DNA from: Candidatus Methanomethylophilaceae archaeon | GTDB taxonomy: Archaea; Thermoplasmatota; Thermoplasmata; Methanomassiliicoccales; Methanomethylophilaceae | Assembly: GCA_050950505.1 (NCBI GenBank) | Contig: JBMNHS010000001.1 | Coordinates: forward strand, 608,001 to 672,000 | Reading direction: 5' to 3' | DNA length: 64,000 nt | Notes under the pieces: generated by a model | Database searches by the model: none | Seen by the model: only the letters and a program-made list of their open reading frames with translations | Told to the model about the DNA's origin: nothing | Translations under genes and position numbers: made by a program | Shown: one piece after another, positions 4,249 to 63,500 of the stretch | Numbering within the stretch: position 1 is the first letter of the stretch | Layout: each line of letters opens with the position of its first letter

Positions 4249-4356
4249 GTTACCACTGCCGACACATGTCCTGACTATGTTAAATCTGTTGCTGGTATGA
4301 TTCCGGACAACAACCACCAGAAATAAATTATTAGATGAGAGAACATACCGTAAACG

Positions 4357-33405: not shown

Positions 33406-33429
33406 AGTTATTGACATATGTCAGAAACT
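33406..33429. promoter_or_regulatory. operator palindrome AGTT-AT-TGACATATGTCA-GA-AACT upstream of the DUF134 operon
   Basis: Perfect 12-bp core at 33412-33423, just downstream of TATA-like TTTTTATC (33391). Confidence 0.65.
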
Positions 33430-33493
33430 ATGACACTTCGAACCGTACGCCGACAGGTTGCGGAAAGAAACAATCAACGAAGAGGAACAACCG

Positions 33494-34242: not shown

Positions 34243-34246
34243 TGTC

Positions 34247-36773: not shown

Positions 36774-36825
36774 AACTTATTAAAAAACAAAAAATCAAAC
36801 CCATAGAGAGACAAGGAGAAAAAAA

Positions 36826-37182: not shown

Positions 37183-37690
37183 ACGAAAAATAAAACCATG
37201 ACACAATGCACAGTGCGGATCGGAAGCCTGATGATTTTTACGTCATCGGACATCCGCCGCACCGTGCACAATTCCATAGTCGGTGTTTCGGCACAGAACC
37301 AACTCGACAGTGTCGACGGTGCACACTTCTTGCCGATGCACCATAAAAGCAAACCACCGGTCACCGTAATTTGAAACAATCGGGAAATTTCATGATTTCC
37401 AAAGAAACACGGCTCAGACGCATCCGTTTTTGAGAACCTCAATCCATTGTGCGCATTCCGTGAATATACCCCCTCATTCCGAGAATAAGATATAAAAATG
37501 AAAATGTATACATACATGCGGCCGTACGATTCGACGACCATGTTCGGGATGTTTCACATTCTGAATAAAGGCAATCGATGCGACGGTTCCGATAAACGAT
37601 ATATATATAGATACAGCAGTCATTAAATTTGCGTCGGAGATTGTTTTGGAAGCATAACTACAATAAGGTTGTTTCAAAAAGGGGTCAGTA

Positions 37691-40600
37691 ATGGAAAGGT
37701 TGGATAAATTAGGACTCGGGATATGGTTCGTATCACTGTTGCTCGTATCGGCAATGGTAGTGCTGGACGGCACAGACGAAGATTCGGACCCGGAAGATCC
37801 CATCGAATATCCGGTCGTCGGAGGCAACGGAGGCATATGGGACAGACCCTTTGATGAATTCATTGTAACTATAAAGGCGGATTGTTCAAAATTCACGGGC
37901 TTAAAAATCAACGGATTTCCGGTTGATGAATCCAATTATACCATATCGTCAGGAAGCGCAGTAATCACCCTGAAACCCGATTATCTCCGGACGCTCAGTG
38001 ACGGGACGCATTCTTTGGAATTTTTGTTCAATGACGGAAACGCATCCATGACTTTGACGGTATCCGTCGAGGCTAAAATATTGAAAATCGAGGAACTTGA
38101 ATCGCTCCTCGCCGATTACGACAAAGACGATTACAGCGAAGAGGACTGGACGTCTCTGGTTGATTTCATAACCGCGGCGAAACTGGAAATCGTAAATCTC
38201 GAAGACGTATCGGAAGTGGAAACATTCGACATCGGTAATGTAAAGACCGAATGCGACGACGTAAGAACATTGGCGGAAATAAAGGAATCCTTTTTGGACG
38301 AGTTGCAGAACAGGATTGACGGGCTGAACGGAACCGATGGTTTCAACATCACTTTGAACGGCGAAGATCTGACGGTGGAATCGGAAAATACCGCGGATGT
38401 TCCGGACATTCTTGATGCAATATCGGATTTGGCCGACATATTGGAGAATCTTTTCGGTACGAATGCCAAGCTGACCGTCAACGGCAAAGATTTTATTCTG
38501 GGCGATGTGAACCTTACAGAACTGGCCGAGGCACTTCTTGAAGATTCGGACGACGGTCTTCCGGACGGAAAAGAAATCGACGCCGAATACGCAGTATCCG
38601 TCCGATATGAAAACGTCAATATCGGTCTCAATGGCATTCTGAGTCTTTACGCCATTTGGAACATCAACCAGTACACCATAACATTTGACACCGACGGAGG
38701 TTCTTCCGTCGACTCCATCAAACAGGATTACGGCACGTCGGTGAAGGCTCCGGCAGGCCCGACCAGAACTGGATACTCCTTCGCGGGCTGGAACCCGGCG
38801 ATTCCGGAAACCATGCCGGCGGAGAACATCACGATAACCGCACAATGGTCGGTCAACCAATACACCATAACCTTCGATTCCGCAGGAGGAACCGACGTCG
38901 ATCCCATCAAACAGGATTACGGCACGTCGGTGAAGGCTCCGGCAGACCCGACCAGAACTGGATACACCTTCGCGGGCTGGAACCCGGCGATTCCGGAAAC
39001 CATGCCGGCGGAGAACATCACGATAACCGCAGAATGGTCGATCAACCAATACACCATAACCTTCGATTCCGCAGGAGGAACCGACGTCGATCCCATCAAA
39101 CAGGATTACGGCACGTCGGTGACGGCTCCGGCAGACCCGACCAGAACGGGATACACCTTCGTGGAATGGGATACGGAAATACCGGCAAAGATGCCCGCGA
39201 CGGACATGACCGTAACCGCAGTCTGGAAAATTAACCAATATACCATAACCTTCGATAACAACGGAGGCGCCGGAACGATACCTGCGGTTGATAAGGACTT
39301 CGAAGAGACCGTCACTGTCCCGGCCTACGGATTCACCAAGATTGGATATACTCAGATCGGCTGGAACACCGCCGCCGACGGCTCGGGAACGTCTTACGAA
39401 AAGGACGGAACCTTCGACATGCCCGCAGACGACATCACACTGTATGCCGTCTGGAAAATCAACCAATACACCATAACCTTCGATTCCGCAGGAGGAACCG
39501 ACGTCGACTCCATCGAACAGGATTACGGCACGTCGGTGACGGCTCCGGCAGACCCGACCAGAACGGGATACACCTTCGTGGAATGGGATACGGAAATACC
39601 GGCAAAGATGCCCGCGACGGACATGACCGTAACCGCAGTCTGGAAAATTAACCAATATACCATAACCTTCGATAACAACGGAGGCGCCGGAACGATACCT
39701 GCGGTTGATAAGGACTTCGAAGAGACCGTCACTGTCCCGGCCTACGGATTCACCAAGATTGGATATACTCAGATCGGCTGGAACACCGCCGCCGACGGCT
39801 CGGGAACGTCTTACGAAAAGGACGGAACCTTCGACATGCCCGCAGACGACATCACACTGTATGCCGTCTGGAAAATCAACCGGTACACCATAACCTTCGA
39901 TTCCGCAGGAGGAACCGACGTCGATCCCATCAAACAGGATTACGGCACGTCGGTGACGGCTCCGGCAGACCCGACCAGAACGGGATACACCTTCGTGGAA
40001 TGGGATACGGAAATACCGGCAAAGATGCCCGCGACGGACATGACCGTAACCGCAGTCTGGAAAATTAACCAATATACCATAACCTTCGATAACAACGGAG
40101 GCGCCGGAACGATACCTGCGGTTGATAAGGACTTCGAAGAGACCGTCACTGTCCCGGCCTACGGATTCACCAAGATTGGATATACTCAGATCGGCTGGAA
40201 CACCGCCGCCGACGGCTCGGGAACGTCTTACGAAAAGGACGGAACCTTCGACATGCCCGCAGACGACATCACACTGTATGCCGTCTGGAAAATCAACCGG
40301 TACACCATAACCTTCGATTCCGCAGGAGGAACCGACGTCGACTCCATCGAACAGGATTACGGCACGTCGGTGACGGCTCCGGCAGACCCGACCAGAACGG
40401 GATACACCTTCGTGGAATGGGATACGGAAATACCGGCAAAGATGCCCGCGACGGACATGACCGTAACCGCAGTCTGGAAAATTAACCAATATACCATAAC
40501 CTTCGATAACAACGGAGGCGCCGGAACGATACCTGCGGTTGATAAGGACTTCGAAGAGACCGTCACTGTCCCGGCCTACGGATTCACCAAGATTGGATAT

Positions 40601-43600
40601 ACTCAGATCGGCTGGAACACCGCCGCCGACGGCTCGGGAACGTCTTACGAAAAGGACGGAACCTTCGACATGCCCGCAGACGACATCACACTGTATGCCG
40701 TCTGGAAAATCAACCAATACACCATAACCTTCGATTCCGCAGGAGGAACCGACGTCGACTCCATCGAACAGGATTACGACACGTCGGTGACGGCTCCGGC
40801 AGACCCGACCAGAACGGGATACACCTTCGTGGAATGGGATACGGAAATACCGGCAAAGATGCCCGCGACGGACATGACCGTAACCGCAGTCTGGAAAATT
40901 AACCAATATACCATAACCTTCGATAACAACGGAGGCGCCGGAACGATACCTGCGGTTGATAAGGACTTCGAAGAGACCGTCACTGTCCCGGCCTACGGAT
41001 TCACCAAGATTGGATATACTCAGATCGGCTGGAACACCGCCGCCGACGGCTCGGGAACGTCTTACGAAAAGGACGGAACCTTCGACATGCCCGCAGACGA
41101 CATCACACTGTATGCCGTCTGGAAAATCAACCGGTACACCATAACCTTCGATTCCGCAGGAGGAACCGACGTCGATCCCATCAAACAGGATTACGGCACG
41201 TCGGTGACGGCTCCGGCAGACCCGACCAGAACGGGATACACCTTCGTGGAATGGGATACGGAAATACCGGCAAAGATGCCCGCGACGGACATGACCGTAA
41301 CCGCAGTCTGGAAAATTAACCAATATACCATAACCTTCGATAACAACGGAGGCGCCGGAACGATACCTGCGGTTGATAAGGACTTCGAAGAGACCGTCAC
41401 TGTCCCGGCCTACGGATTCACCAAGATTGGATATACTCAGATCGGCTGGAACACCGCCGCCGACGGCTCGGGAACGTCTTACGAAAAGGACGGAACCTTC
41501 GACATGCCCGCAGACGACATCACACTGTATGCCGTCTGGAAAATCAACCGGTACACCATAACCTTCGATTCCGCAGGAGGAACCGACGTCGACTCCATCG
41601 AACAGGATTACGGCACGTCGGTGACGGCTCCGGCAGACCCGACCAGAACGGGATACACCTTCGTGGAATGGGATACGGAAATACCGGCAAAGATGCCCGC
41701 GACGGACATGACCGTAACCGCAGTCTGGAAAATTAACCAATATACCATAACCTTCGATAACAACGGAGGCGCCGGAACGATACCTGCGGTTGATAAGGAC
41801 TTCGAAGAGACCGTCACTGTCCCGGCCTACGGATTCACCAAGATTGGATATACTCAGATCGGCTGGAACACCGCCGCCGACGGCTCGGGAACGTCTTACG
41901 AAAAGGACGGAACCTTCGACATGCCCGCAGACGACATCACACTGTATGCCGTCTGGAAAATCAACCGGTACACCATAACCTTCGATTCCGCAGGAGGAAC
42001 CGACGTCGACTCCATCGAACAGGATTACGGCACGTCGGTGACGGCTCCGGCAGACCCGACCAGAACGGGATACACCTTCGTGGAATGGGATACGGAAATA
42101 CCGGCAAAGATGCCCGCGACGGACATGACCGTAACCGCAGTCTGGAAAATTAACCAATATACCATAACCTTCGATAACAACGGAGGCGCCGGAACGATAC
42201 CTGCGGTTGATAAGGACTTCGAAGAGACCGTCACTGTCCCGGCCTACGGATTCACCAAGATTGGATATACTCAGATCGGCTGGAACACCGCCGCCGACGG
42301 CTCGGGAACGTCTTACGAAAAGGACGGAACCTTCGACATGCCCGCAGACGACATCACACTGTATGCCGTCTGGAAAATCAACCAATACACCATAACCTTC
42401 GATTCCGCAGGAGGAACCGACGTCGACTCCATCGAACAGGATTACGACACGTCGGTGACGGCTCCGGCAGACCCGACCAGAGAAGGATTTGTTTTCATGG
42501 GATGGAATCAGACGGTACCTGAAATCATGCCCGCTGAGAACTTGGAGCTCCTTGCTATTTGGGAATATCCGATTGTCGGCGGTAAAGAAGGTATGTGGAA
42601 CAAACCCCTTAATGAATTCACTGTAACCGTGGAAGCGGATTATTCGAAATTCACAGGTCTGAAAATCGATGGAAATCCGGTCGATGAATCAAACTATTCC
42701 GTAGTATCCGGAAGTACCATAGTCACACTCAACCTCGATTATCTCTGGACACTTGGCGACGGGGAGTACGACATAGATATTTTATTCGATGATGGAAACG
42801 CGTCCATGATTTTGACGGTATTCGCAGATGCTAAAATCTTGAAGATTAAAGAACTTGACACACTTCTCGCCAAATACGATGAAAATGATTACGGGGAAAT
42901 CTACTGGACCGCTTTGTTAGAGTATGTAATGTCTGCGAAGGAAGAAATCTCAAATCTTGATGATATTGAGAAAGTGGAAAACTATGATACCAATGCCGTA
43001 GAGGGTAATTGTGACGACGTAAAGACTTTGGCGGAACTCAAAGGATCTTTTTTGGCTGCGTTGCAGGACGAGATAACCATACTGAATGGAACCGACGGCA
43101 TCCACGTTGCCTTGGTCGATGAAAACATAACTGTCAAGATTAAAGACAATGTATCTATTTCGGTGGTTTTTAATGCGGCATCTGAGATGGTCAACGCATT
43201 AAAGAACATCGTCGGTAACGACAGCACCTTGACAATCAACGGACAGGAATTCACACTTTACGATGATGGGTTGCTCCCGGCTCTGGTTACCGCAATTCTT
43301 AACGAAACGACACCCGAAGAATTCCTGGACAAAGGAGATCCCGTGTCCGTTGGTTATGCCGCCAATATTGCGTACGAAGATGCAAACATAACTCTCGACG
43401 GTTGCTTGAACTTTAAAGCAGTCGGAACAAGAGAGATGCTGTTGATAACACTGCAGACCAAAATAGACGAGCTGAACAAAACCGAAGGCATCAACGTTAT
43501 TTTGAATGTTGAAGATGCGGCGGTGGACATAGCGGTGGAGTTTGACGACAACGTACCGATTCCCGTCGTCCTTAATGCGGCATCCAATCTGGTTGAAATA

Positions 43601-46600
43601 TTGAAGAAAATTGTCGACCCGGAAGAAAGTACATTGAAGCTTGGCAGTAGCGACAAAACATTCACTCTCCTGGATGAGGGGTTGCTTCCCGCCCTGGTTG
43701 TCGCACTTCTTGCAGACACAACGCCCGAAGAATTCTTGCTGAACAAATTGGAAGTAAGCACCGATTACATCGCATCTCTTCTGCATAAAGACGAATATAT
43801 CCCGCTTGAAGGCAAGTTAAGCTTCAAGGTAATCGAAACTACATGCGAAGTGATTTTCAGAGATTACAACGGAAATGTGCTGAAAGAGGAAACCGTTATA
43901 TATAGAGAAGGGGCCACCCCCCCGAACAATCCCGACAATAAGAAAGGTTATCGTTTCATCGGTTGGGACACATCTTACGATTGCATATTGACAGATCTGG
44001 TAATAACCGCTCAGTATGAGATATGTCAGTACACTGTAACCTTTTACACCGACGGAGGCTCTGCAGTCGATTCGATAACAGAGGATTACGACACATCAGT
44101 GGAGGGACCGGATAACCCTGTCAGAGGCGGTTATATCTTTTACGGATGGTACAACTCCGAAGGCGAAGAGGTAACTTTCCCGTTCAATATGCCCGTCGGA
44201 GGTTTGAATCTGACTGCGATGTGGAAAATCGGAATATCCGTTCCCGTCGGTAAAGAATTGACTTACAACGGAGCGAATCAGCTCGGCGCCGACGGAGGAA
44301 CCGGATATACTTTGGAAACGGGCAAGAATCAAACCAACGTCGGTGATTACACAGTCACGGCTACGCTCAACGACGGTTACCTGTGGGTCATTCCCGGAGA
44401 AAATGGGGGTGATATGTACAGTATAGAACCTCAGGTCATTTCATGGAGCATAGTCAAAACCAAATTGACCGTAAAGGCCGACGATGTGACAGTGATATTC
44501 GGCAATGAACCTGTATACACCGTGACTTACATAGGATTGGTCGGGGATGACAGCGAATCAGCACTTGGAGGCAAGTTAACTTTCAACACGGGCTATGACG
44601 CGGATTCTAACGTTTACAAAGAAACATATGTCATAACGCCCTCCGGCCTGACTTCGCCCAACTACGACATCGAATTCATTTCCGGTACGTTGACCGTCAA
44701 TAAAATCAAGATTGATGTTCCCGCTGCAATTTCTGATTTGATTTATAACGGATCTGAACAGACAGGCGTTCTCGAAGGAGAAGGATACACCCTGACCGGC
44801 AATTACAAGGGAACCGACGCCGGCAATTATGTCGCAACCGTCACGCTTGTGAACGGTTACATATGGATTATTCCCGGAGAAAACGGCGGAGAGAACACAT
44901 ACACAGCCGATCCACAGGAAATCAACTGGAGCATAGGGCAGAAGAACATAGCCGGAGCCGTCGTCACCCTTGACGGCACGTCTCTGGTTTACACCGGATT
45001 TGCGATAAAGCCCGGAGTGACTTCTGTCACCCTTGACGGCAAGATTCTTGTGGCAGGCACGGAATACACTGTGTCTCACGGCGAGAACATCAACGTCGTA
45101 ACCGGCGGATCGGTTGTCGTCACCGGAGAAGGGAATTACACCGGAACCGTTACGGCAACCTTCGTCATAACCAAGGAGAAACTCACCCTGCCGGCGGAAA
45201 ACACGACACTGTTCATATACACCGGTAAAGAGCAAACATATGACATTTCGGGCTTCGACCCTGACACCATGGGCATCGAAAACAACACGAGAACCGAGGC
45301 CGGATTCCAAACCGTTATCGTATCCATAAAGGACAAAGCCAACTATGAATGGGCCGACGAAACGGATGACGATGTGAAATTCACGTTCACAATATCCCCG
45401 AAGGAACTGGACATCAGCGAAGAATTCGGATTGGTCGCTGTGGACCGGGTTTACAACGGAAACGATGCAGAATTCATTTTTGTGTTCATGGATAGGGTTC
45501 TTGATTACACTCTTCTGGTAAACACCGATTATACCGTGACCGTTACCGGCGTGAACGGCATCAGGGATGTCGGAACTGTGACCGTGACCGTTACCTCCGT
45601 GGATGGTAGCAATTACAGCGTGTCCGCGACCAAGGAAATCAATATCACTCCAAAAATCATTGAATTGGATCTGACCGGAGAAAACACTTCTAAAATCTAT
45701 GATGGCAAAGTTGCGGTATTCGACTTCGAATTTAATGTTAATTACCCTATATATACTCTGAAGGAAAACACAGATTACACAATTGAATTCCTCAGAGGCA
45801 GCTATGACACAACGGATTTCCTGAACGTCGGAACCATAACAGTGAACATAAAACCCGTGGACGGCAGTAATTACAGCGTGTCCGGAACCATGTCCTTTAC
45901 CATCCTTAAGGCGGAACTGACCGCGACTTATGCGGGAGAAACCGTGGAATACGGAACGACGCCCGGGCTGTTCGTTACGGTAACCGGTTTCGTCAACGGC
46001 GAAAACGAGACTGCGGCAGGATATGCCGCACCGTCGTTGATTAACACAAATGTCAACGCAGGCAAATATCAGCTGGCACCCTCCGGCGGAGAAGCCGACA
46101 ACTACACCTTCAAGTATGTTGAGGGACAACTCGAGATAACCAGAGTCAAGCTTGACAAGCCTACAGCGGATCCGACGGAATTTGTCTATACAGGCAATGT
46201 GCAAACTTACAACCCAATCGGTTTCGTCGAGAGCACCATGGGCATCGAAAACAACACGAGAACCGAGGCCGGATCCCAAACCGTTACCGTATTCATAAAG
46301 GACAAGGTCAACTACGAATGGGCTGACGGAACGAATGTCTGTGTTGCATTCGAGTCCTTCAATATCCTGAAGGCAGATTTCTCCGATTTTGAAGTCAATA
46401 TCATCGTTGATGATGAAGAACGCGTTTATGACGGAACGGCCAAGACGCCCGACGTCACCGTTAAAATTGACAGCAAAGAACTCGAGAAAGACAGGGACTA
46501 CACAGTGTCTTATGACAACAACGTCAATGCCGGAGAGGCCGCAAAGGTCATCATAACCGGTATAGGCAATTTCAAGGGATTCACGTCTGAGGTTTTCATC

Positions 46601-49600
46601 ATATCCCCGAAGGACATTTCCGTCACGGGAGCGAGCATAACCGGTAAATACACCTTTGTCGGGGAGGCCATAACGCCGAACCCCGTGTTCACGGACACTT
46701 TCGTTACCGAAAACGATTACTCCGCGACATATGACGACCCCATCAACGCAGGAACGGTTACGGTCACCATCACCGGAAAAGGAAATTATACCGGAAATAC
46801 AACCGTAACTTTCACCATAATGAAGAAAACCGTCACCGTCACTCCCAATGCGGGATTGTCCAAAATTTATGGTGATGCCGATCCCGAGCTGACTTATACG
46901 CTGGATGATGAAGACGCTCTCCCGTTCATAAAGGAAGGCACGGTTCTGTCCAGGGTCGACGGAAAGAATGTGGGTACATACGCGATACTCTTGGGAACGT
47001 TGGAGCTTTGCGGCACGGACAATTATGTCTTGGAATTCACTGTCGGAGTGACTTTCGAAATCATCCCGAAGCCACTGACGGAAGGCATGTTCGTCATAGA
47101 CAGTCAGACCTATACAGGTTCAGTCCTCACACCAATCATTATTTCCGATATCGATTGTAACGAATACACGGTCGCCGACATAAACCCTGTCGGGGCAGGT
47201 GATTACGTTGTGAGCATTTCAGCGGTGACCGACGGAAACTACTCCGGATCGGTTACGGTGAAATACACCATTGAAAAGGCAAAACTCACCAAGCCCGTGG
47301 AAGATGAAACGGTGTTTGTCTACTCCGGCAGTGAACAGATTTACGCCCCCAAGGGTTTCGATACCGGCACTATGAATATCCTCGGCAACAAGATGACCTA
47401 TGTCGGAACTCAGGATGTTACCGTTTCTATAAAGAATAAAGACAACTACGAATGGATCGATGGAACAGATGCCGGTGTAATCTTCACATTCACCATAAAA
47501 GAAAAGATTTTCGATTTCTCTGCGGCGGAAACGTCCGTCAGCGATACGAAATACACGGGATTGAGCATAACCTTCGACTTCGATGGCAAGTTTGTCGATT
47601 CAACCATTGATGAAGGATACACTCTCTTGGAGGGCAAAGATTATGTTGTGGAGTATACCGACAACAAGAATGTCGGAACCGCGACGATAACCATTACCGG
47701 CAAAGGCAACTACGAAGGAGCCGTTATTGTCAAATTTAAAATAACCCCTAAGGAAATCACCGTCACTCCCAAGTCCGGTCAAACCGTGGAATATACGGGT
47801 TACGCACCTGATGTGAAATTCGATTTCCCCGAGAGTTTCGGTACCTTTGAAGATTTCACAGGAACTCTGGACCTTGCAAAGGACGGTCAACCTGTCACTG
47901 TCTACAACGTCGGCGAGTACACCGTTGTCCTCGGAGATTTGAAGTCCACCGATCCCAACTATGAATTGGTGTTGGCAACAGGCACAGTAACATTCGAAAT
48001 AACCCCCAAGAAAATCATCGCCACTCCCGCTGCGGGTCAATCCGCAGAATACGGAACCGGTTTCAGCTTGGAATTCAGCCTTTCCGAAACAGGATTCACC
48101 GACTACGGCGGAGTTCTGGGTCTTGAAAAGGACAACAGTCCCGTCACCGTATACAATGTCGGCCAGTATGTTATCGTCATCGGAACTTTGGCGTCCACTG
48201 ACGATAATTATATGCTTATATTGGCGGAATCGCCGGTAATCTTTGAGATATTCAAGGCGGAACTCATCAAGCCTGCGAAAGGCACAACAGAGTTCATTTA
48301 CACCGGCGAGGAGCAGACCTATGACATTTCGGGATTCAATCCCGACACCATGGATATCGCTGGCAACAAGATGACCGATGCCGGATCCCAAACCGTTATC
48401 GTGTCCATAAAGGATAAGACAAATTATCAGTGGGCGGACAAAACGGAAGGCGATGTGACTTTCACATTCACTATAGGGGAGAGAAACATCTCCGATGTCA
48501 CGATAACCATCGACCCGAATGCGAATCTGACTTACACCGGACTTGTCATAGAACCCGGTATAACGGTGACGTTGGACGGAAATCCGTTCAATACATCCAA
48601 CTATAGCGTGTCCTATGCAAACAACATCAATGCGGGAACCGCAACGGTAAAAATTACTGCCAAAGGGACCAACTACGATGGAACTGCCACAAAGGATTTC
48701 GTCATATCCAAAGCGAAGCTGACGGCGACCTATGCAGGAGAGTCCGTGGAGTACGGAACAATTCCCGGTTTAGTCGTAACGGTAACCGGGTTCGTCAATA
48801 ATGAAAACGCTGGCAACGCAATGGGATATAACGCACCGAGGTTGACCAATTCAAATGTCAACGTGGGCAAATATCAACTGACGCCTTCCGACGGAGCGGC
48901 CAACAATTATTCTTTCGATTACGCCACGGGAACTCTAAGCATAATCAAGAAGAAAGTCAATGTTCTGATTGGAACTGGTCAGACTGCGGAATACACCGGA
49001 GCCGCACCGGCTATCAATTACGAACTGTCCGAAACCGTGGATACCACTGTCACCGGTACATTATCCATAGGTGAGGTTTACAATGTCGGAATTTACAATA
49101 TACTGATAGGAACGCTTGATGCCGGGTCCAACTATGAATTGGTCAGGCCGGAAACCCCTGTCACCTTTGAGATTATTCCGAAAAATATCTCCGGTGCCAC
49201 TGTTGGGGCAATACCCGATCAGACTTACACAGGATCTGCCATCATACCCGATCTTGTAGTGAAGGACGGCAGTAAGACTCTCACAGCGGGTACCGACTAC
49301 GAAGTTTCGTTCGCCGGAGGCGTTGACAATACGAATGTCGGAAACGTCGCGGTCACCGTCACCGGCATCGGTAATTACAAGGGAACGGTTGACGGAGTGA
49401 CGTTCTCCATAATTCAAAAGAACATATCCGGCGTGAATGTAACGGTAACATTCACGGATGGCGTTTATAGCGTCACCGCTATGGACGGCGATAGGACCTT
49501 AGAAGAGGATGTCGATTACGAAGTCGAAACCGCCGGAAACCCTCTGGTAAAGATAACCGTAAAGGGCAAGGGCAACTACACGGGAGAAGTATCCTTCGAG

Positions 49601-52600
49601 ATATACACAATATCATTCGTTGTTGAAAATGGAAACACAATAGCGGATATATACAATCTTCAGAAAGATGACGTTGTTACTCTCGAGAATCCCTCCAGGG
49701 AAGGTTATGAATTCACGGGATGGTATATCGATTCAGAAGGAGAAGAAGTCACAGGGAGCAATATATGGACTTTTGTCAATAAAGCAATAAACAATGTCAT
49801 AACTCTGACGGCGGTATTTGAGCCTTGCAAATATACCATAACCTTTGATTCTGCGGGAGGATCCACTGTTGATTCAATAACCCAGGACTACATGTCCAAA
49901 GTGAACGCCCCTGGCTATCCTGTCAAAACAGGTTATAATTTCGTTCATTGGAAAGATTCAGACGGAAACGAGGTAATCTTCCCCACAGCCATGCCTCTGG
50001 GCGGCATGAAACTTACTGCTGTCTGGTCAATCAACCAATACACCATAACCTTTGACACCGACGGAGGCTCCACAGTCGATTCGATAACCCAGGATTACGG
50101 CACGACAATCGATTCTCTCAATGACCCGACAAAGGAAGGATACACCTTTGCAGGATGGTACCCTATCGTGCCGGCAACCATGCCCGCGAATAACTTTACG
50201 ATAACAGCCTTATGGACCGTCAACCAATACACTATAGAGCTCAATCCCGCAGATGGATTCGTTATCGAAGATGGTGATGGATCTTATACTGTCAAAGGCA
50301 GTTATACCGACAACAGTATAGTAAAAGACGTTATAAATGAAATTCTGAGTGTAAGCATTCATTGCAACGATATCGACATATCAGATGTTTTCGATATCAG
50401 TTATTATGACATGAGCGGTAATGAAATCTTTGTTCTGGACTTATCCAAGGGCGGGACGACATTCATGATTCGGTTGAAGGCAACCCCGGATTCGAACGAA
50501 CACAGTTCATTCGGATGTTGGGTGATTTTCAAATACGGCTCGGTAACAATCGGCAAAGAAAGTACTGATTACTTAACCATCGAGGATGCTTTGGAACAAG
50601 CGAGTTCCGACCAGACGATAATCGTCAAATACAACACATCCTTTGCCGATGAGGATGTAGCTCTTCAGGTTTATGGCAAGACTGTATTTGAAGTGGGAAG
50701 CGGAGTTACATTGTTGTTGCCTTATGACGGTAATCTAAGAAGTGATTTCACCGATGCAAAATTAGATGCAGAAGCAGGGGAAGCGACAACACCTTCCAAA
50801 CGTGATGTTGCCTATGTAAAATTGAACGTACCCGAATCGATTTCTCTTGATGTTTCCGGAACACTTACCGTAAATGCGAAAAGAACACACAGTTCCACGG
50901 CTTACCAGAACATTGTATCAGGTAAAAATTATTCAGAATTAATACTGAATAGTGGCAGTAGGTTAAACATCGAACAATATGGTGTCCTTAACGCCATTGG
51001 TTTTATTTACGGAGACGGTCACATCAAAGCATCAGGGGGAGCAACCGTGCTCGAGACCATGCTCATAAGTAGTTTTAGGGGAGGGTCCGCATCACTTAGT
51101 TTAGGACTTGGCGGAAAAGTGTTTCCATTTGAACAATTCACTATTATAAATATAGAGTCTGATTTGATAATCGAGGAGGATGCCGTGTATAAAGCGCATA
51201 TATTCGTTTATGCAAGTAGTAAGTACACCGGTTCAGATGTGGATTTGATAGGCAACGGCGCCGATAGCATGTTATGTCTTTCCGAGGGACACATATTAAA
51301 AAAGTTTGATGCCGCAACCGGGAATTTGACGCTTGAGGTGGAAGGCACATGCAATTTACAAGATATTAATGCCAACGGTTTCTCTTCCAGCGGTCTTAAT
51401 CTACCCTTTGATGGCAGATGGCATATCGTTGTTAAGAGTGGCAGCGTTCTCAATATAAATTCTGAAGTCAGCTTACTGCCCGGTGCTTCTGTAGTGGTGG
51501 AAGCGGATTCGGTAGTCAATATCAATGGCGGTTTGATCGTGTTCAATCCGTATGAGTACATATATGCGGATAACAAAACATATAATGAATTCCCTACGCC
51601 CAATGCTTCACATTGGTATCGGATACAGCCCACATTAGGATATAAGAGCGACACGTCTGCCAAATTAGAGGTTTATGGTCAGCTCAATGTGAACAAAGAC
51701 GGATACATAGCAGGCAAAGTAGACGTAATGGCAGACGACGTTCTGAACATAGAAGAAGGTGCTGAAACTTCCAAGTATATTTGGTATGTAGGGGAAGTAA
51801 GTACTGTCTTCGAAAGAGCAGTAAAGTTATGGCTGGATGAAACCTATACCATAAGTGTTACCGTTGATAATCCTACTACAAAGGTAGATGAGACATTTTC
51901 CGCGGTTGTTACCGCTTTAGTAAAAAGCAAGTATGGTACACCCATTGCCAATAAGTCTGTTTCTTTCAGATTGCCCGGTGACGATACGGTATATTACGCC
52001 ACTACAGATGGCAAGGGTTATGCAAAAATAACCCTCGAAGTAACCCCATCAGAGAGTGGGTATTGCATCATTCGTGTAGATGTTGACGATAGTTTTGCTG
52101 AGGGTATTATAGAAGTAACGAAGTCCTCGGGTGGTGGCGGTAGTTGTTTATCACCAGACACACTCATAACTTTAGCCGATGGGACTCAAAAGCCCGTCGA
52201 GGAACTTACCGGAGACGAACTTCTGCTGGTTTGGAATATGAATACCGGTACATTTGATGTCGCGCCCATCATATTCGTAGATTCCGATCCTCACGCAGAG
52301 TATGAAATCATTCAGGTGAATTTCTCTGACGGAACGTATGTAAAAGTCATATACGAACACGGGTTCTGGGACTTCGATCTGAACCGGTACGTGTACATAA
52401 ACGACGACTGTCCGCAACAGTACATAGGACACTGGTTTAACAAACAAACCACGGACGCGGACGGAAATTTCGCGTGGACAAAGGTTCAGCTTGTTGACGT
52501 CGTGATTTATACGGAGTACACGACCGCATGGAGTCCGGTCACCGCCGAACATTTGTGCTATTACACAAACGGGATGCTGTCTATGCCGGGCGGCATCGCG

Positions 52601-52852
52601 GGTCTGTTCAACATCTTTGAAGTCAATCCCGAAACGATGGAAATCGATCAGGAAGCCTATCTGGCGGATATAGCGGAATACGGACTTTTCACCTATGAGG
52701 AATTTTCTGAGATTCTCTTTGTGCCCGAAGAAGTATTCGACATATTCCAGGCAAAATATTTCAAGATTGCAATAGGAAAGGGATTGATCGATATGGACAG
52801 ACTGGTTAAACTGGTGGAACGGTACGGCGGCATGCTGGGCATGGAACTCTGA
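37691..52852 (+). CDS. giant adhesin-like surface protein (5053 aa): signal/TM, Ig-like and helical modules, InlB B-repeats, MBG-like repeats, variable domain, C-terminal Hint domain
   Basis: Hydrophobic N-terminus; YTITFD..GG....PTRTGYTF..W repeats; Hint start GGGGS|CLSPDTLITLADG at 52145. Confidence 0.9.
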   Translation: MERLDKLGLGIWFVSLLLVSAMVVLDGTDEDSDPEDPIEYPVVGGNGGIWDRPFDEFIVTIKADCSKFTGLKINGFPVDESNYTISSGSAVITLKPDYLRTLSDGTHSLEFLFNDGNASMTLTVSVEAKILKIEELESLLADYDKDDYSEEDWTSLVDFITAAKLEIVNLEDVSEVETFDIGNVKTECDDVRTLAEIKESFLDELQNRIDGLNGTDGFNITLNGEDLTVESENTADVPDILDAISDLADILENLFGTNAKLTVNGKDFILGDVNLTELAEALLEDSDDGLPDGKEIDAEYAVSVRYENVNIGLNGILSLYAIWNINQYTITFDTDGGSSVDSIKQDYGTSVKAPAGPTRTGYSFAGWNPAIPETMPAENITITAQWSVNQYTITFDSAGGTDVDPIKQDYGTSVKAPADPTRTGYTFAGWNPAIPETMPAENITITAEWSINQYTITFDSAGGTDVDPIKQDYGTSVTAPADPTRTGYTFVEWDTEIPAKMPATDMTVTAVWKINQYTITFDNNGGAGTIPAVDKDFEETVTVPAYGFTKIGYTQIGWNTAADGSGTSYEKDGTFDMPADDITLYAVWKINQYTITFDSAGGTDVDSIEQDYGTSVTAPADPTRTGYTFVEWDTEIPAKMPATDMTVTAVWKINQYTITFDNNGGAGTIPAVDKDFEETVTVPAYGFTKIGYTQIGWNTAADGSGTSYEKDGTFDMPADDITLYAVWKINRYTITFDSAGGTDVDPIKQDYGTSVTAPADPTRTGYTFVEWDTEIPAKMPATDMTVTAVWKINQYTITFDNNGGAGTIPAVDKDFEETVTVPAYGFTKIGYTQIGWNTAADGSGTSYEKDGTFDMPADDITLYAVWKINRYTITFDSAGGTDVDSIEQDYGTSVTAPADPTRTGYTFVEWDTEIPAKMPATDMTVTAVWKINQYTITFDNNGGAGTIPAVDKDFEETVTVPAYGFTKIGYTQIGWNTAADGSGTSYEKDGTFDMPADDITLYAVWKINQYTITFDSAGGTDVDSIEQDYDTSVTAPADPTRTGYTFVEWDTEIPAKMPATDMTVTAVWKINQYTITFDNNGGAGTIPAVDKDFEETVTVPAYGFTKIGYTQIGWNTAADGSGTSYEKDGTFDMPADDITLYAVWKINRYTITFDSAGGTDVDPIKQDYGTSVTAPADPTRTGYTFVEWDTEIPAKMPATDMTVTAVWKINQYTITFDNNGGAGTIPAVDKDFEETVTVPAYGFTKIGYTQIGWNTAADGSGTSYEKDGTFDMPADDITLYAVWKINRYTITFDSAGGTDVDSIEQDYGTSVTAPADPTRTGYTFVEWDTEIPAKMPATDMTVTAVWKINQYTITFDNNGGAGTIPAVDKDFEETVTVPAYGFTKIGYTQIGWNTAADGSGTSYEKDGTFDMPADDITLYAVWKINRYTITFDSAGGTDVDSIEQDYGTSVTAPADPTRTGYTFVEWDTEIPAKMPATDMTVTAVWKINQYTITFDNNGGAGTIPAVDKDFEETVTVPAYGFTKIGYTQIGWNTAADGSGTSYEKDGTFDMPADDITLYAVWKINQYTITFDSAGGTDVDSIEQDYDTSVTAPADPTREGFVFMGWNQTVPEIMPAENLELLAIWEYPIVGGKEGMWNKPLNEFTVTVEADYSKFTGLKIDGNPVDESNYSVVSGSTIVTLNLDYLWTLGDGEYDIDILFDDGNASMILTVFADAKILKIKELDTLLAKYDENDYGEIYWTALLEYVMSAKEEISNLDDIEKVENYDTNAVEGNCDDVKTLAELKGSFLAALQDEITILNGTDGIHVALVDENITVKIKDNVSISVVFNAASEMVNALKNIVGNDSTLTINGQEFTLYDDGLLPALVTAILNETTPEEFLDKGDPVSVGYAANIAYEDANITLDGCLNFKAVGTREMLLITLQTKIDELNKTEGINVILNVEDAAVDIAVEFDDNVPIPVVLNAASNLVEILKKIVDPEESTLKLGSSDKTFTLLDEGLLPALVVALLADTTPEEFLLNKLEVSTDYIASLLHKDEYIPLEGKLSFKVIETTCEVIFRDYNGNVLKEETVIYREGATPPNNPDNKKGYRFIGWDTSYDCILTDLVITAQYEICQYTVTFYTDGGSAVDSITEDYDTSVEGPDNPVRGGYIFYGWYNSEGEEVTFPFNMPVGGLNLTAMWKIGISVPVGKELTYNGANQLGADGGTGYTLETGKNQTNVGDYTVTATLNDGYLWVIPGENGGDMYSIEPQVISWSIVKTKLTVKADDVTVIFGNEPVYTVTYIGLVGDDSESALGGKLTFNTGYDADSNVYKETYVITPSGLTSPNYDIEFISGTLTVNKIKIDVPAAISDLIYNGSEQTGVLEGEGYTLTGNYKGTDAGNYVATVTLVNGYIWIIPGENGGENTYTADPQEINWSIGQKNIAGAVVTLDGTSLVYTGFAIKPGVTSVTLDGKILVAGTEYTVSHGENINVVTGGSVVVTGEGNYTGTVTATFVITKEKLTLPAENTTLFIYTGKEQTYDISGFDPDTMGIENNTRTEAGFQTVIVSIKDKANYEWADETDDDVKFTFTISPKELDISEEFGLVAVDRVYNGNDAEFIFVFMDRVLDYTLLVNTDYTVTVTGVNGIRDVGTVTVTVTSVDGSNYSVSATKEINITPKIIELDLTGENTSKIYDGKVAVFDFEFNVNYPIYTLKENTDYTIEFLRGSYDTTDFLNVGTITVNIKPVDGSNYSVSGTMSFTILKAELTATYAGETVEYGTTPGLFVTVTGFVNGENETAAGYAAPSLINTNVNAGKYQLAPSGGEADNYTFKYVEGQLEITRVKLDKPTADPTEFVYTGNVQTYNPIGFVESTMGIENNTRTEAGSQTVTVFIKDKVNYEWADGTNVCVAFESFNILKADFSDFEVNIIVDDEERVYDGTAKTPDVTVKIDSKELEKDRDYTVSYDNNVNAGEAAKVIITGIGNFKGFTSEVFIISPKDISVTGASITGKYTFVGEAITPNPVFTDTFVTENDYSATYDDPINAGTVTVTITGKGNYTGNTTVTFTIMKKTVTVTPNAGLSKIYGDADPELTYTLDDEDALPFIKEGTVLSRVDGKNVGTYAILLGTLELCGTDNYVLEFTVGVTFEIIPKPLTEGMFVIDSQTYTGSVLTPIIISDIDCNEYTVADINPVGAGDYVVSISAVTDGNYSGSVTVKYTIEKAKLTKPVEDETVFVYSGSEQIYAPKGFDTGTMNILGNKMTYVGTQDVTVSIKNKDNYEWIDGTDAGVIFTFTIKEKIFDFSAAETSVSDTKYTGLSITFDFDGKFVDSTIDEGYTLLEGKDYVVEYTDNKNVGTATITITGKGNYEGAVIVKFKITPKEITVTPKSGQTVEYTGYAPDVKFDFPESFGTFEDFTGTLDLAKDGQPVTVYNVGEYTVVLGDLKSTDPNYELVLATGTVTFEITPKKIIATPAAGQSAEYGTGFSLEFSLSETGFTDYGGVLGLEKDNSPVTVYNVGQYVIVIGTLASTDDNYMLILAESPVIFEIFKAELIKPAKGTTEFIYTGEEQTYDISGFNPDTMDIAGNKMTDAGSQTVIVSIKDKTNYQWADKTEGDVTFTFTIGERNISDVTITIDPNANLTYTGLVIEPGITVTLDGNPFNTSNYSVSYANNINAGTATVKITAKGTNYDGTATKDFVISKAKLTATYAGESVEYGTIPGLVVTVTGFVNNENAGNAMGYNAPRLTNSNVNVGKYQLTPSDGAANNYSFDYATGTLSIIKKKVNVLIGTGQTAEYTGAAPAINYELSETVDTTVTGTLSIGEVYNVGIYNILIGTLDAGSNYELVRPETPVTFEIIPKNISGATVGAIPDQTYTGSAIIPDLVVKDGSKTLTAGTDYEVSFAGGVDNTNVGNVAVTVTGIGNYKGTVDGVTFSIIQKNISGVNVTVTFTDGVYSVTAMDGDRTLEEDVDYEVETAGNPLVKITVKGKGNYTGEVSFEIYTISFVVENGNTIADIYNLQKDDVVTLENPSREGYEFTGWYIDSEGEEVTGSNIWTFVNKAINNVITLTAVFEPCKYTITFDSAGGSTVDSITQDYMSKVNAPGYPVKTGYNFVHWKDSDGNEVIFPTAMPLGGMKLTAVWSINQYTITFDTDGGSTVDSITQDYGTTIDSLNDPTKEGYTFAGWYPIVPATMPANNFTITALWTVNQYTIELNPADGFVIEDGDGSYTVKGSYTDNSIVKDVINEILSVSIHCNDIDISDVFDISYYDMSGNEIFVLDLSKGGTTFMIRLKATPDSNEHSSFGCWVIFKYGSVTIGKESTDYLTIEDALEQASSDQTIIVKYNTSFADEDVALQVYGKTVFEVGSGVTLLLPYDGNLRSDFTDAKLDAEAGEATTPSKRDVAYVKLNVPESISLDVSGTLTVNAKRTHSSTAYQNIVSGKNYSELILNSGSRLNIEQYGVLNAIGFIYGDGHIKASGGATVLETMLISSFRGGSASLSLGLGGKVFPFEQFTIINIESDLIIEEDAVYKAHIFVYASSKYTGSDVDLIGNGADSMLCLSEGHILKKFDAATGNLTLEVEGTCNLQDINANGFSSSGLNLPFDGRWHIVVKSGSVLNINSEVSLLPGASVVVEADSVVNINGGLIVFNPYEYIYADNKTYNEFPTPNASHWYRIQPTLGYKSDTSAKLEVYGQLNVNKDGYIAGKVDVMADDVLNIEEGAETSKYIWYVGEVSTVFERAVKLWLDETYTISVTVDNPTTKVDETFSAVVTALVKSKYGTPIANKSVSFRLPGDDTVYYATTDGKGYAKITLEVTPSESGYCIIRVDVDDSFAEGIIEVTKSSGGGGSCLSPDTLITLADGTQKPVEELTGDELLLVWNMNTGTFDVAPIIFVDSDPHAEYEIIQVNFSDGTYVKVIYEHGFWDFDLNRYVYINDDCPQQYIGHWFNKQTTDADGNFAWTKVQLVDVVIYTEYTTAWSPVTAEHLCYYTNGMLSMPGGIAGLFNIFEVNPETMEIDQEAYLADIAEYGLFTYEEFSEILFVPEEVFDIFQAKYFKIAIGKGLIDMDRLVKLVERYGGMLGMEL
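38663..39040 (+). repeat. two 189-bp (63 aa) B-repeat units
   Basis: 189-nt periodicity of shadow ORFs (38728, 38917, 39106); near-identical DNA. Confidence 0.85.
39041..42481 (+). repeat. 417-bp (139 aa) tandem repeat, 8 full copies plus 1 partial
   Basis: Exact 417-nt periodicity; units differ at three polymorphic spots. Confidence 0.96.
52145..52585 (+). other. Hint (Hedgehog/intein) autoprocessing domain, lacking terminal His-Asn
   Basis: C1 motif CLSPDTLITLADG.QK.VEEL; block B-like IYEHGF; end SPVTAEHLCYYTNGMLSM. Confidence 0.8.
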
Positions 52853-53037
52853 CCCGATTCATGAAACATCGCGGTAACAGATTAGGCATCTGCAACCAAA
52901 GACACAAGTTCAAATCCATCATAGACTGCCCATGAAGTCAAAACGATACGCCGCAAAACCTCACTCAGAGAGAGTATTTTCACGTTCTTTTCATATCTTG
53001 TTAACCGTGTAACACAAATTGATTGTGTCAAAAGGGA

Positions 53038-60558: not shown

Positions 60559-63500
60559 TCAGTTTCTGCTTTCTATGGTTTTCACGATTTTCGCAATCTC
60601 TCTTTCGGGATCTTTCCACATTCCGGGAGTCCACACCCTGTGCATCACCCATCCGTTGGATTCGAGGTATTTCTGCCTGTGATAATCCCTTTCTCTTGCC
60701 GATTGCGACATGCCGTAGAGATGACCGTCGATTTCGATGCCCAAGATGTAATCCCCGTTCTGTTTTACGGCCAAATCTATTCTGTATCCGCCGATACCCA
60801 CGTTCCTGTCCACGGTGTATCCTTTGCGGACGAGGGAGTTGTACACCCTGTCGGACACCGAGCTTTGGGTTTCGATGATCGGGGAATCGTCCCAGCGGGA
60901 ATCGCAGAAGGATTGAAGGATATGGTCGGCAGATGCCGTGTCCCCGTTGCTCACGGCCTCGGAATACTGCAGATATTTCTTCAGCAGCTTCGGACCGTCA
61001 TTTGCAACATCCTCCACTCTCAGGTTTTCGGGTCCTATGGAAGTCACAATGTGAATCTTCCGTTTGGCGCGGCTGATTGCGACGTTGAGGCGGTTTTCCC
61101 CGCCCTGGTTGTTCAGCCACCCGAATCTTTGTGCCATCTTGCCGTCGGGGTTCGGGGCGTAGCCGATGGAGAACATTATCACATCCCTTTCGTCGCCCTG
61201 AACGGTTTCGATGTTCTTGATGAACAGACTCACATCCTCGCCGTTGTCGAATCTTGTCAGCTCGGCGCTGAACACTTTGTTGAAAACCGGGTCTTTGGCG
61301 CATTCGTCGTCAAGCATGTCGCTTATCAGATCTTTCTGTGCCGCGTTGAACGTGAGTATGCCGACGCTTTCGTTCTCCCTCCGGGTTCTGAAGAAGTTCT
61401 TCAGCAACTCTATGATTTTGGCGGCCTCGACTTTATTTTTGGTATTGTCCCAGACACCGTCCACCCTGTGGACTTCGATGGGGGGTTCCTCCGGCACTTT
61501 GATGTTGGGCGAAACGTAAAGTTCCCCTTTGTAAAATGCGTAGTTCGAGAAAGCGATGAGTTCCTCGTATCTGGAACGGTAGTGGAAGTTCAGAAGGATG
61601 GAATCGTAACGGGATCTGGCCAAATCCAGGAGGCTGTCTTCTTCCAGTGCGGCTTCGTCTTCCATAAGACCTTCCTCGTATTCGAGACGTCCGAACCCCA
61701 GACTGCTGGGCCTCAGTTGTTTGTGGTCTCCGGAAACAACGACCTTCCTGGCTCTGTATATGGAGGGTATGCCTCTTTCCACATACATCTGGGAAGCCTC
61801 GTCGAAAATCACCAGATCGAACAGTCTCATGCGGAGAGGCAGAACTTCCGATACGGTGTCGGGAGTCATCAGCCAGACTCTTATTCCGTTGAACAGTTCG
61901 TGATCGAAACGCTCGACGAATTTGTTGATGTTCCATTTCCGTTTACTGTCGGCGACTCTGAGCATGTCCCCTTTGCGTTTGGAATCGGTGATGTTTCTCA
62001 TGTAGCCCTGGAAATGATACTCGGCGGAACTTCTGGCCAGTTCCATCTTCTCTTCGATTTTTGAATCGATGTCCGAGACGATACGGTCGAAATCCCGTAT
62101 GTTCTGCATCAGATCCCTGTTGTTCGCGTCGAATTTCTGCAGACGGTCGTTCAGTATGAATTTCAGCATTTGATCGTTGCACTGCTTGGGTCCGGTTTTC
62201 AGGGCGTCAATCAGGTTAAGCAGATTTTTGCCGTATGTTTTTTCATTGGCGGTCATTCGGTCATAGGCCGCGCTCCGTTCGGAGAACAAATCGTAATCCC
62301 CAAGGCCGTCGAAGAATCTCCGTGGCTCATCCAGCAACATGTCGACCATGGATTTTCCGTATTCCGCGAAACCGAACTCCAGTATCTTTTCCGCTTCTTT
62401 GGCGATTTTTCCTCTGCCCATTTTGCGGCCCAGGGCGCCTTTGGATTTCAATTCGGAAACACTCGTCTCCAAATCCCTGATCAGCATTTTGGTCTCTCCG
62501 ATGTCGTACTCGGAAAGATTGTTTTTCACATTCATGATCCAGGGGTTCCTTTCCAGGCAATCGTGATATTCCCCGAACCCTTTGAGAGTCAGGGAATCCG
62601 AAAAGGTATCGTGAAGGCTTTTCACTTCTCTGTAATTCAGTTTCAGCAATTCCGGGTTTATCCCGTCCCTCAGTATTGCGTATTCTTCGTACTGATGCCG
62701 GTCGTTGAGATCCAGCCATCTGTCCATGGAGTAAAGTTTGTACGGGGAAATGCCGAATTCATCGGGCTTGTACATACGTTTGGAAATTCCGTTCAGTATG
62801 TTGAAATCGTTGTCCACGGATTCAGAAATGTCCCGGAGTCCGTATTCCTCGCGGGGAGGTTCCGGCTCAAGCATTCTGCTTATCTGGTTGTAGAAATTTC
62901 TTTTGTCTCCGGAATCGTCGATGAGCATGCAGTATTTCGACAGATTTCCCAAACGGGAATAGACCACGTCCAGAGCGATTTTCTTTTCTGAGACCATAAG
63001 CACGTTGCGCCCGTGCATTATTTCCGAAACAATCAACGCGGTGATGACCTGGGATTTGCCGGTGCCCGGAGGACCCTGCACCACCAAAGCATCATTCTTC
63101 TGAATTCCCGTAAGGACGTTCTCCTGGGCGCTGTTCAGGGGATTGATGTAAAGCAAATCCTTTTCCGAAGCGCCCAGTCCTTTTTCTTCGATTTCTTGCC
63201 CGGACAGAGGTTCCCTGCCGATTCCGGTGAACTCGTAGGGATCCCAATCTTTGACCAAATCGTTCAGGACTTTGTTTATATTCTTCCTTTCAATTATTTT
63301 TTCGAAGTCCAGGTGTATGGCGCTGGAGTACGAAGAATAACGTCCCAGCACGATGTTGGGAATGATTTCCAGCTGCCCCGGGGTGTATTTAGGGAAGCCG
63401 TTTGTTTTGTACTCTTTGAAAGGCACGGTTCCCGTTTCTTTTCCCGCATCTATGGATATTCCCTGTTCCGAATAGAATTTTATCAATTTTTCAAGGAAGT

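Follow-up and report, generated by a model that had tools for sequence, protein, structure and literature searches.

The giant gene and its C-terminal cassette

The window, a stretch of 64,000 nucleotides from the genome of a Candidatus Methanomethylophilaceae archaeon (GenBank assembly GCA_050950505.1, contig JBMNHS010000001.1, positions 608,001 to 672,000 of the forward strand), carries an open reading frame (ORF) whose translation is a secreted or surface repeat protein of 5,053 residues, here termed the adhesin, composed of a large passenger body and a C-terminal cassette of 235 residues in which a Hint domain is followed by a tail of 88 residues (Table 1). Beyond the linker the sequence passes from Cys4819 through CLSPDTLITLADG, the motif IYEHGF and HLCYYTNGMLSM, the last of which ends at residue 4965, and thence through the tail to the stop codon. 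Cassette residues are numbered below with Cys4819 as Cys1; on this scale the block-B histidine within IYEHGF, His4890, is His72.

Across the entire protein, only residues 7–25 make up an uncharged hydrophobic stretch at least 16 residues long, so that there is no C-terminal membrane helix, and a PGF-CTERM or membrane anchor was rejected as a candidate because no hydrophobic stretch lies outside those residues. Searches of the last 236 residues against NCBIfam and Pfam returned no PGF-CTERM, sortase signal or toxin domain, and Exosortase_EpsH had no match in the window genome.

Table 1. Coordinates of the adhesin gene, the cassette and its key residues in the window
Feature	Residues	Position	Strand	Basis or remark
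Whole gene: secreted/surface repeat protein (passenger + cassette)	5,053 aa	37691..52852	+	ORF list, translation, Pfam
N-terminal signal peptide or signal anchor	1-26	37691..37768	+	hydrophobic 7-25; passes crude signal test
Tandem array, 417-bp unit (double Listeria-Bacteroides repeats)		39041..42481	+	Tandem Repeats Finder; 8.3 copies, 99% identical
Big_1-like Ig domain, just 5' of cassette	~4721-4789	51851..52057	+	Pfam PF02369, 27.3 bits (cut-off 34.9)
Linker KSSGGGGS	4811-4818	52121..52144	+	sequence; -1 residue Ser4818; predicted scissile bond Ser4818|Cys4819
Hint domain	4819-4965 (cassette C1-M147)	52145..52585	+	AF2 model, VIA, Foldseek; no terminal His-Asn
Cys1 (Cys4819)		52145-52147	+	Hint residue
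Asp46		52280-52282	+	Hint residue
His72		52358-52360	+	Hint residue
Cys138		52556-52558	+	Hint residue
Ser146		52580-52582	+	Hint residue
Acidic tail, five helices	4966-5053 (88 aa)	52586..52849	+	AF2 model; no structural or family match
Asp175		52667-52669	+	tail invariant across both subfamilies
Tyr179-Gly180-Leu181			+	tail invariants across both subfamilies
Lys212-Gly213		52778-52780 (Lys212)	+	tail invariants across both subfamilies

Fold and conserved residues of the Hint domain

An AlphaFold2 (AF2) model of the 235-residue cassette, built from a 32-sequence alignment with a predicted local distance difference test (pLDDT) score of 92.0 and a predicted template modelling (pTM) score of 0.87, placed strands as far as residue 148 and five helices at 169–228. 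Comparison of this model with 48,161 chains by VIA-align returned the NpuDnaB intein 4o1r (Z 17.8; root-mean-square deviation (rmsd) 1.9 over 136), Hedgehog 1AT0 (Z 17.6; rmsd 2.0 over 140; model residues 1–150 against chain residues 258–402) and Tetrahymena BIL2 6TMM (Z 17.5), with 30 chains at Z ≥ 8, all of them Hint-type among the matches listed; Foldseek gave E values of 1.6e-8 to 5e-8 for the same three structures and 63 matches at E ≤ 0.001. The structural matches span about residues 1–150 of the model, and those to inteins stop at 147–149, which are Met-Pro-Gly in the cassette. Residues 4819–4965 are accordingly modelled as a horseshoe-like Hint fold, and by this predicted fold they belong to the HINT superfamily.

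The Hint domain ends at Ser146-Met147, and Pro148-Gly149 follow in place of the His-Asn and the +1 nucleophile of inteins, so that neither splicing nor Asn-driven C-terminal cleavage is expected; within the family, 243 of 244 sequences have Ser at position 146 and 224 of 244 have Met at 147. The best structural match, itself an intein, would point to a genuine intein or splicing element, yet that interpretation is scarcely credible: the C-terminal Asn and the +1 nucleophile are missing, the module is terminal rather than inserted in a host protein, and its flanks are non-conserved passengers. Three claims of an earlier reading made from the sequence alone (the sequence-only reading) are borne out by these data, namely that a Hint fold opens exactly at Cys4819, that its end lacks His-Asn, and, from the hydrophobicity scan and the two family databases, that no C-terminal transmembrane segment, PGF-CTERM-like signal or toxin domain is present; all the elements that it named were recovered at the coordinates given.

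Detection of the Hint domain by sequence was far less secure. The Hedgehog family PF01079, the one Pfam family reported for the cassette at E ≤ 1, matched with E 0.004 and 17.2 bits (cut-off 29.7), and only over positions 13–84 of the 213 in the profile; the NCBIfam model TIGR01445 scored 16.2 bits, below its cut-off of 24.5; and sequence matches in the PDB were only marginal (best E 0.02), those obtained with a family profile (A1) being weaker still (E 0.85), probably due to the long passenger columns in that profile. That known Hint profiles scarcely detect the cassette, together with replacement of the Thr of the block-B TXXH motif by Ile69, would suit a non-catalytic module that has lost processing and in which Hint and tail together mediate C-terminal binding or oligomerisation at the protein tip. 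The conservation data render this improbable: Cys1 was kept in 243/243 family members and His72 in 244/244, both residues persist in each of the two subfamilies described below, homology begins exactly at Cys1 with unrelated sequence upstream, and Cys1 and His72 would not be expected to persist in Hint relics that had lost activity.

Asp46 is kept in 242 of 244 sequences (99%) of the window's subfamily, and in a weak phmmer alignment to 1AT0 (E 0.3), with which the structural register agrees, it falls opposite Hedgehog D46/D303; the residue there in BIL2 and in the NpuDnaB intein is Val or Asn. In two studies, D46/D303 is the general base that coordinates both catalytic steps of Hedgehog processing (PMC9163320), and an active-site Asp or His is a feature dividing Hog-Hint from other Hint domains (PMC7765530, PMC9163320). 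Since a second subfamily is without that Asp, the likeness is treated as a lead only. The Hint part has a net charge of −17 in the window and a family median of −12.

The tail and its linkage to the Hint domain

In the full model the tail consists of helices at 169–179, 184–190, 195–200, 203–211 and 217–228, mostly with pLDDT values of 88–98, and the pTM for all 235 residues indicates that it is placed confidently against the Hint domain; when the tail was modelled alone (pLDDT 83.3) the five helices were unchanged. Nothing in Pfam or NCBIfam matched it, the ESM Atlas gave no usable match, and the best hit in PHROGs (E 0.02) was to a family of unknown function. The tail-only model was likewise without structural match (best VIA Z 2.6; best Foldseek E 2.1 in the PDB and 3.4 in BFVD), and tail-only rows of the whole-model VIA search did not exceed Z 2.8; these searches record missing matches and do not establish that the fold is new.

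Separate profiles of the tail (A2) and the Hint domain (A3), each made from 14 sequences, were run on the same 300 Clostridia-class genomes. The tail profile yielded 19 strong matches (E ≤ 5e-19) in ten genomes plus two weak ones (~E 1e-3), and the Hint profile 19 strong matches (E ≤ 6e-36) in the same ten genomes at abutting coordinates, plus one weak and unrelated. A full-length Hint domain (profile positions 1–144/145) lay in frame directly 5' of the tail in 16/16 fetched regions, and the two weak tail matches had no Hint beside them. Hint and tail are one conserved 235-residue cassette, linked 19/19 both ways in the 300-genome sample, which is present in one to three copies per carrier genome, often together on one contig. 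The description of the tail in the sequence-only reading, as 88 residues that are acidic (net charge −11) and helical, stands; the tail corresponds to no known domain in Pfam, NCBIfam, PHROGs, PDB or BFVD, and by the linkage check which that reading had proposed it is an obligate partner of this Hint type.

Among the 14 sequences of the tail profile identity was 38–70%, and the motifs common to both subfamilies recurred. Mutual information calculated over 195 sequences gave its top Hint–tail pairs between positions 84/86 and 150/151/155; these follow subclades and are silent on the active site.

At one locus in a Christensenellaceae metagenome-assembled genome (MAG; L014:3640-6704) a frameshift or a sequencing error within the Hint domain divides the cassette gene between two frames.

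A family with unrelated passengers

An exhaustive search of representative proteins returned 2,760 matches at E ≤ 1e-3, 2,035 at E ≤ 1e-10 and 1,283 at E ≤ 1e-30, the last mostly secreted Clostridia proteins with unrelated passengers, numbers that lie far above chance expectation; a word-indexed search returned 1,907 longer proteins at E ≤ 1e-3, the best 120 of which were 62–89% identical across 96–100% of the 236-residue query. The top-scoring matches of both searches were combined in a set of 243 proteins, which is thereby biased to close relatives. The residue preceding Cys1 was variable in this set (S 98, E 38, A 28, G 23, N 17, T 13, K 11, others 15), and 228 of the proteins ended 220–239 residues after Cys1.

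The passengers comprise S8 and C1 peptidases, alpha/beta (lipase-like) hydrolases, BspA-type leucine-rich repeat (LRR) proteins, Flg_new and Big_1 proteins, and many without any Pfam domain. A crude signal-peptide test was passed by 169 of the 234 members that start with Met, the remainder being mostly fragment-like, and no cell-wall anchor family was recognised among the Pfam families of the 120 best relatives. The claim that the cassette is special to a giant archaeal adhesin thus fails, proteases, lipase-like hydrolases, LRR proteins and passengers without Pfam domain all ending in it.

In polymorphic toxin systems a Hint domain is found ahead of the C-terminal toxin (PMC3482391, PMC4436062), and the cassette could on that model be a pre-toxin Hint that frees the tail as a C-terminal toxin into a competitor. 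The tail is however conserved rather than polymorphic, there is no Asn to sever it from the Hint domain, and no immunity-like gene is conserved downstream at 13 loci. Nor was PT-HINT, the pre-toxin Hint family of Pfam, among the Pfam matches of the cassette at E ≤ 1. The toxin interpretation is close to refuted by the conserved tail and the lack of a conserved neighbour gene, and its probability is put at very little.

Fourteen of the 243 proteins carry an extra extension of about 45 residues after the tail, which in twelve (P0018, P0026, P0033, P0038, P0094, P0096, P0101, P0113, P0117, P0121, P0127 and P0138) is of low complexity, rich in His, Asn and Gly, and mostly ends in RRRGR; its composition suggests metal binding. 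Zinc is reported to affect Hint domains (PMC8616854).

Two subfamilies

Thirty cassette sequences derived from genomes fell into two types only 35–40% identical to each other. The window's type is marked by FVDSDP, HLCYY.NG.LSM-PGG and NIFEV; in the second, VVNHG (V-N-H-G) replaces the Asp46 segment, Cys138 is missing and Thr replaces Ser146. Common to both types are the Hint residues Cys1 (30/30), Thr6, Thr9, Gly13, Gly35, Phe60, His72-Gly73 (His72 in 30/30), Tyr93, Gly95-His96, Phe98, Leu116 and Ser130, together with Ser or Thr at position 146 in 29/30. Within the tail, Asp175, Tyr179-Gly180-Leu181 and Lys212-Gly213 were kept in 29–30 of the 30, and the invariance of these polar residues argues for a site of the tail's own.

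Copies of the second type (L019-L030 and L011:11368-12042) often lie beside window-type or other copies on one contig, as on G063:C35, G192:C64, G273:C5, G163:C15 and G299:C74.

Distribution and origin

All 12 species-representative loci belong to Clostridia-type MAGs, of the Anaerovoracaceae, Christensenellaceae, Oscillospiraceae, Peptococcaceae, Acutalibacteraceae and others. Among 61 related archaeal genomes the cassette was confined to two, in one of 29 genera: the window genome (one copy), a methanogen genome of 1.33 Mb that is 99.6% complete and encodes McrA, and one further genome of the same genus with a copy 76% identical. A scan with the tail profile of 300 further genomes from the phylum, representing 137 genera, gave no match. 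Plasmid and phage collections gave no cassette match, nor did IMG/VR, where single-protein patterns see close relatives only.

A FastTree phylogeny of 57 cassettes, rooted on the second subfamily, grouped the window copy, the other archaeal copy and three proteins in one clade (support 0.71), which groups with an Anaerovoracaceae sequence and relatives of the latter (support 1.0); together they lie within clades of Clostridia (0.97 and 0.85). Residues ~4000–5052 of the adhesin align with the nearest relatives at 46–85% identity, well beyond the cassette alone, so that about the last 1,000 residues of the adhesin share ancestry with those proteins. On these sequence comparisons the cassette is assigned a bacterial and not an archaeal origin, and transfer from bacteria to the archaeal genus appears the simplest reading, the direction within the innermost clade being left aside.

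Two other genomes of the same genus (L033 and L034) keep the flanking PLD-ABC-Usp block as in the window, with PAC2 just past the fetched stretch, and have neither giant ORF nor adhesin homologue between the two; since the flanks are kept and the adhesin is not, its gene lies in a variable island. Some 8 kb of other genes occupy the interval in L033 and L034, which are without the CbiA/Fer4 pair, the gene for a metallo-beta-lactamase (MBL)-fold protein and the 15-kb adhesin gene found at ~33000-53000 of the window.

One RefSeq record from outside these groups, WP_284544738.1 (P0250), is a protein of 251 residues from Acholeplasma laidlawii, a cultured, wall-less Mollicute with a complete 1.46-Mb genome. 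It has 17 residues before Cys1 and no signal peptide, and may be the tail end of a disrupted or truncated gene; its 90% cluster includes a member of 1,246 residues.

Proposed mechanism of processing

The reading that we tentatively prefer, while stopping somewhat short of calling it probable, is that the last 235 residues constitute a horizontally acquired, Clostridia-type, Hog-like autoprocessing cassette in which an acceptor other than water, bound by the tail, resolves a thioester. Following export, Cys4819 would first attack the carbonyl of Ser4818 with the assistance of His4890 in block B, and an N-to-S acyl shift would generate the thioester. Formation of this bond at Ser4818|Cys4819 is quite probable in view of the predicted fold, the invariant residues and the exact module boundary, and the invariant Cys1 and His72 would provide the minimal machinery for such a shift. 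With a Ser-Met-Pro-Gly end and no His-Asn, splicing would not ensue, and Hint and tail would remain one 26-kDa piece. The co-folded tail, by means of Asp175, Tyr179 and Lys212, would then present to the thioester a nucleophile other than water, candidates for which are amines or hydroxyls carried by lipid head groups, glycans or surface proteins, and the 4,818-residue body would part from the cassette bearing a covalent adduct at its newly formed C-terminus.

Transfer from a Hint thioester has precedents in the attachment of cholesterol in Hedgehog (PMC9163320) and of lysine, as an isopeptide, by BIL2 (PMC8616854). Besides these Hog and BIL2 precedents, a tail-bound acceptor is favoured by the strict linkage of Hint and tail, the invariant polar residues of the latter, the alignment of Asp46, and a position on secreted proteins that is typical of a C-terminal anchor.

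Several observations weigh against transfer to such an acceptor. Each catalytic step is derived from sequence and model; Asp46 and Cys138 are absent from the second subfamily and therefore are not universal catalytic residues; and the tail is strongly acidic (family median −12), whereas the corresponding sterol-recognition region (SRR) of Hedgehog is hydrophobic. No partner gene was conserved beside 13 loci, Pfam showed the neighbours to be unrelated housekeeping genes, and water would explain no less well how the cassette comes to be spread over very different envelopes. A sortase match was present in two of ten carrier and 143 of 290 non-carrier Clostridia genomes, a difference that is not significant (Fisher p = 0.105) and to which related, hence non-independent, genomes contribute. 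One relative, P0354, has only about 26 passenger residues, which is odd for an anchoring device.

P0354 is a protein of 278 residues on a 157-kb contig and looks complete, with a signal peptide, the short passenger and the cassette; its product may be a short (modified?) peptide, or the cassette itself may be the functional part.

Much of this evidence would be accommodated equally by hydrolysis alone, whereby the thioester formed by Cys1 and His72 is resolved by water and the cassette acts as a disposable C-terminal pro-domain, releasing a passenger with a free C-terminus; the tail would then hold the protein at the cell surface for a time, set the timing of cleavage or make it sensitive to ions, or assist export or folding. 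Hydrolysis is a serious possibility, if likewise less than probable. It draws on the same fold and residue evidence, and is consistent with the occurrence of the cassette in the unrelated envelopes of Clostridia, a methanogen and the Acholeplasma record, with the lack of a partner gene conserved at the 13 loci, with a tail that is acidic and not lipid-like, and with the minimal passenger of P0354 after its signal peptide; moreover, N-terminal cleavage without ligation is reported for B-type bacterial intein-like (BIL) domains (PMC7765530). Against it, a Hint domain can cleave alone, so that an 88-residue domain which keeps Asp, Tyr and Lys invariant and is never separated from its Hint needs a distinct function to account for it; the passengers, among them S8/C1 peptidases, alpha/beta hydrolases, LRR proteins and Ig-like repeats, are too diverse for the tail to serve as a folding chaperone; and Asp46 aligns, albeit weakly, with the Hedgehog transfer base.

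If transfer to a tail-bound acceptor does take place, the nature of that acceptor is constrained: since the cassette is found in Clostridia, in a methanogen and in the record from a wall-less Mollicute, the acceptor cannot depend on peptidoglycan or on archaeal lipid. An archaeal lipid, which the sequence-only reading had entertained, is further disfavoured by the bacterial origin of the cassette, its sporadic presence in archaea and its highly acidic character. The movement of the cassette between domains of life with its passenger, and with no lineage-specific helper, as shown by the archaeal copy, narrows the possible acceptors.

A stronger proposition, which we consider doubtful, is that the cassette represents a prokaryotic counterpart of Hog, a self-contained C-terminal ligase, independent of ATP and of sortase, which, by way of a Hint thioester and a new acceptor-binding domain, would join secreted proteins covalently to a lipid head group, a glycan or a surface molecule of a partner cell. 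Were this true, the ligase would be portable across Gram-positive bacteria, wall-less Mollicutes and archaea, and at the tip of an N-terminally anchored stalk of 4,800 residues the cassette would serve as a covalent 'harpoon' that can be fired once.

Relation to known systems

The closest architectural parallel is the Hog domain of Hedgehog (1AT0, 6TYY, PF01079), which is likewise C-terminal on a secreted protein, opens with the Cys1 of a Hint domain without the intein Asn, and continues from the Hint domain into a helical extension of ~60–90 residues that is needed with it. The folds agree (Z 17.6, rmsd 2.0/140), His72 occupies the Hedgehog position and, by the weak alignment, so does Asp46 in the window's subfamily. 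The cassette differs in being prokaryotic, in scoring below the gathering threshold of PF01079, in having Ile69 for the Thr of TXXH, in lacking the SCYA/Cys143 motif, and in an acidic tail of five helices for which no resemblance to the SRR or a solved structure was detected. In Hedgehog, Cys143 of SCYA at the Hint end is described as the nucleophile of a branched intermediate, equivalent to the +1 residue of inteins (PMC12054796); the corresponding stretch of the cassette is Leu-Ser146-Met-Pro, with no Cys at the Hint end. By sequence and architecture, the cassette is classed as Hog-like but not as a sequence member of the Hog family.

B-type BIL domains (Amitai 2003 and Dassa 2004, as summarised in PMC7765530) resemble the cassette as bacterial Hint domains of variable secreted proteins for which N-terminal autocleavage is reported, and which possess the intein motifs except the C-terminal one. 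The same text describes BIL domains as internal modules, with no dedicated conserved C-terminal partner in that description, and it is by description only that the B-type is set apart here. The A-type was rejected as a candidate because the C-terminal His-Asn conserved in that type, according to PMC7765530, is missing from the cassette, which moreover is not an insertion; the solved A-type representative 2lwy resembles the cassette by fold alone (Z 16.6).

BIL2 of the Tetrahymena BUBL locus (6TMM, 6Y75) was the top Foldseek match (E 1.6e-8; VIA Z 17.5) and offers a precedent for transfer to an amine, its N-terminal flank being joined to lysine as an isopeptide without ATP (PMC8616854). It differs in possessing a terminal Asn (N143), in being excised, in having its acceptor in a downstream ubiquitin-like domain, and in lacking an Asp at the Asp46 position.

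In the sortase/LPXTG and archaeosortase/PGF-CTERM systems a short-lived C-terminal unit, borne by many unrelated surface proteins, is removed by way of an acyl-enzyme (thio)ester and the protein passed to an acceptor, for which a separate enzyme and a hydrophobic signal are needed. The likeness of the cassette to such C-terminal sorting systems would be one of functional analogy only, catalyst and signal being combined, as we read it, in one self-contained soluble domain.

Autoprocessing by a Hint domain plus recognition region, of the Hedgehog type, has been described as a eukaryotic invention whose origin is unclear (PMC2362128). The cassette family, which is prokaryotic, large and unannotated, is built on this two-part plan and numbers at least 1,283 representative proteins at E ≤ 1e-30, and a search of the full-text literature, subscription-only literature lying outside its scope, found no published description of it. 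Should the tail direct transfer, the cassette would amount to a new enzyme-free means of anchoring or ligating surface proteins and a ready-made tool for protein ligation; should it only control hydrolysis, there would still be an unrecognised maturation step for thousands of Clostridia surface proteins.

Other features of the gene and its surroundings

The gene neighbours of the adhesin include those for aIF2-alpha, PAC2, a diphthamide synthase and an archaeal CCA-adding enzyme, a set that, with McrA in the genome, marks the host as an archaeon. Elsewhere in the window, a gene on the reverse strand (60559-63945) codes for a protein of 1,128 residues with DUF4011, AAA_11/AAA_12 helicase domains and a C-terminal MTES_1575 restriction-endonuclease-like domain, which is unrelated to the cassette.

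Within the adhesin body, Pfam recognised Flg_new (Listeria-Bacteroides repeats) in 21+3 stretches together with Flg_new_2, MBG_2 and CBM_X2; the Big_1 family, to which the domain preceding the cassette shows a sub-threshold match, is also precomputed for the closest relatives of the adhesin. The near-identity of the 417-bp units of the tandem array suggests either a very recent amplification or a stretch prone to collapse or expansion in assembly.

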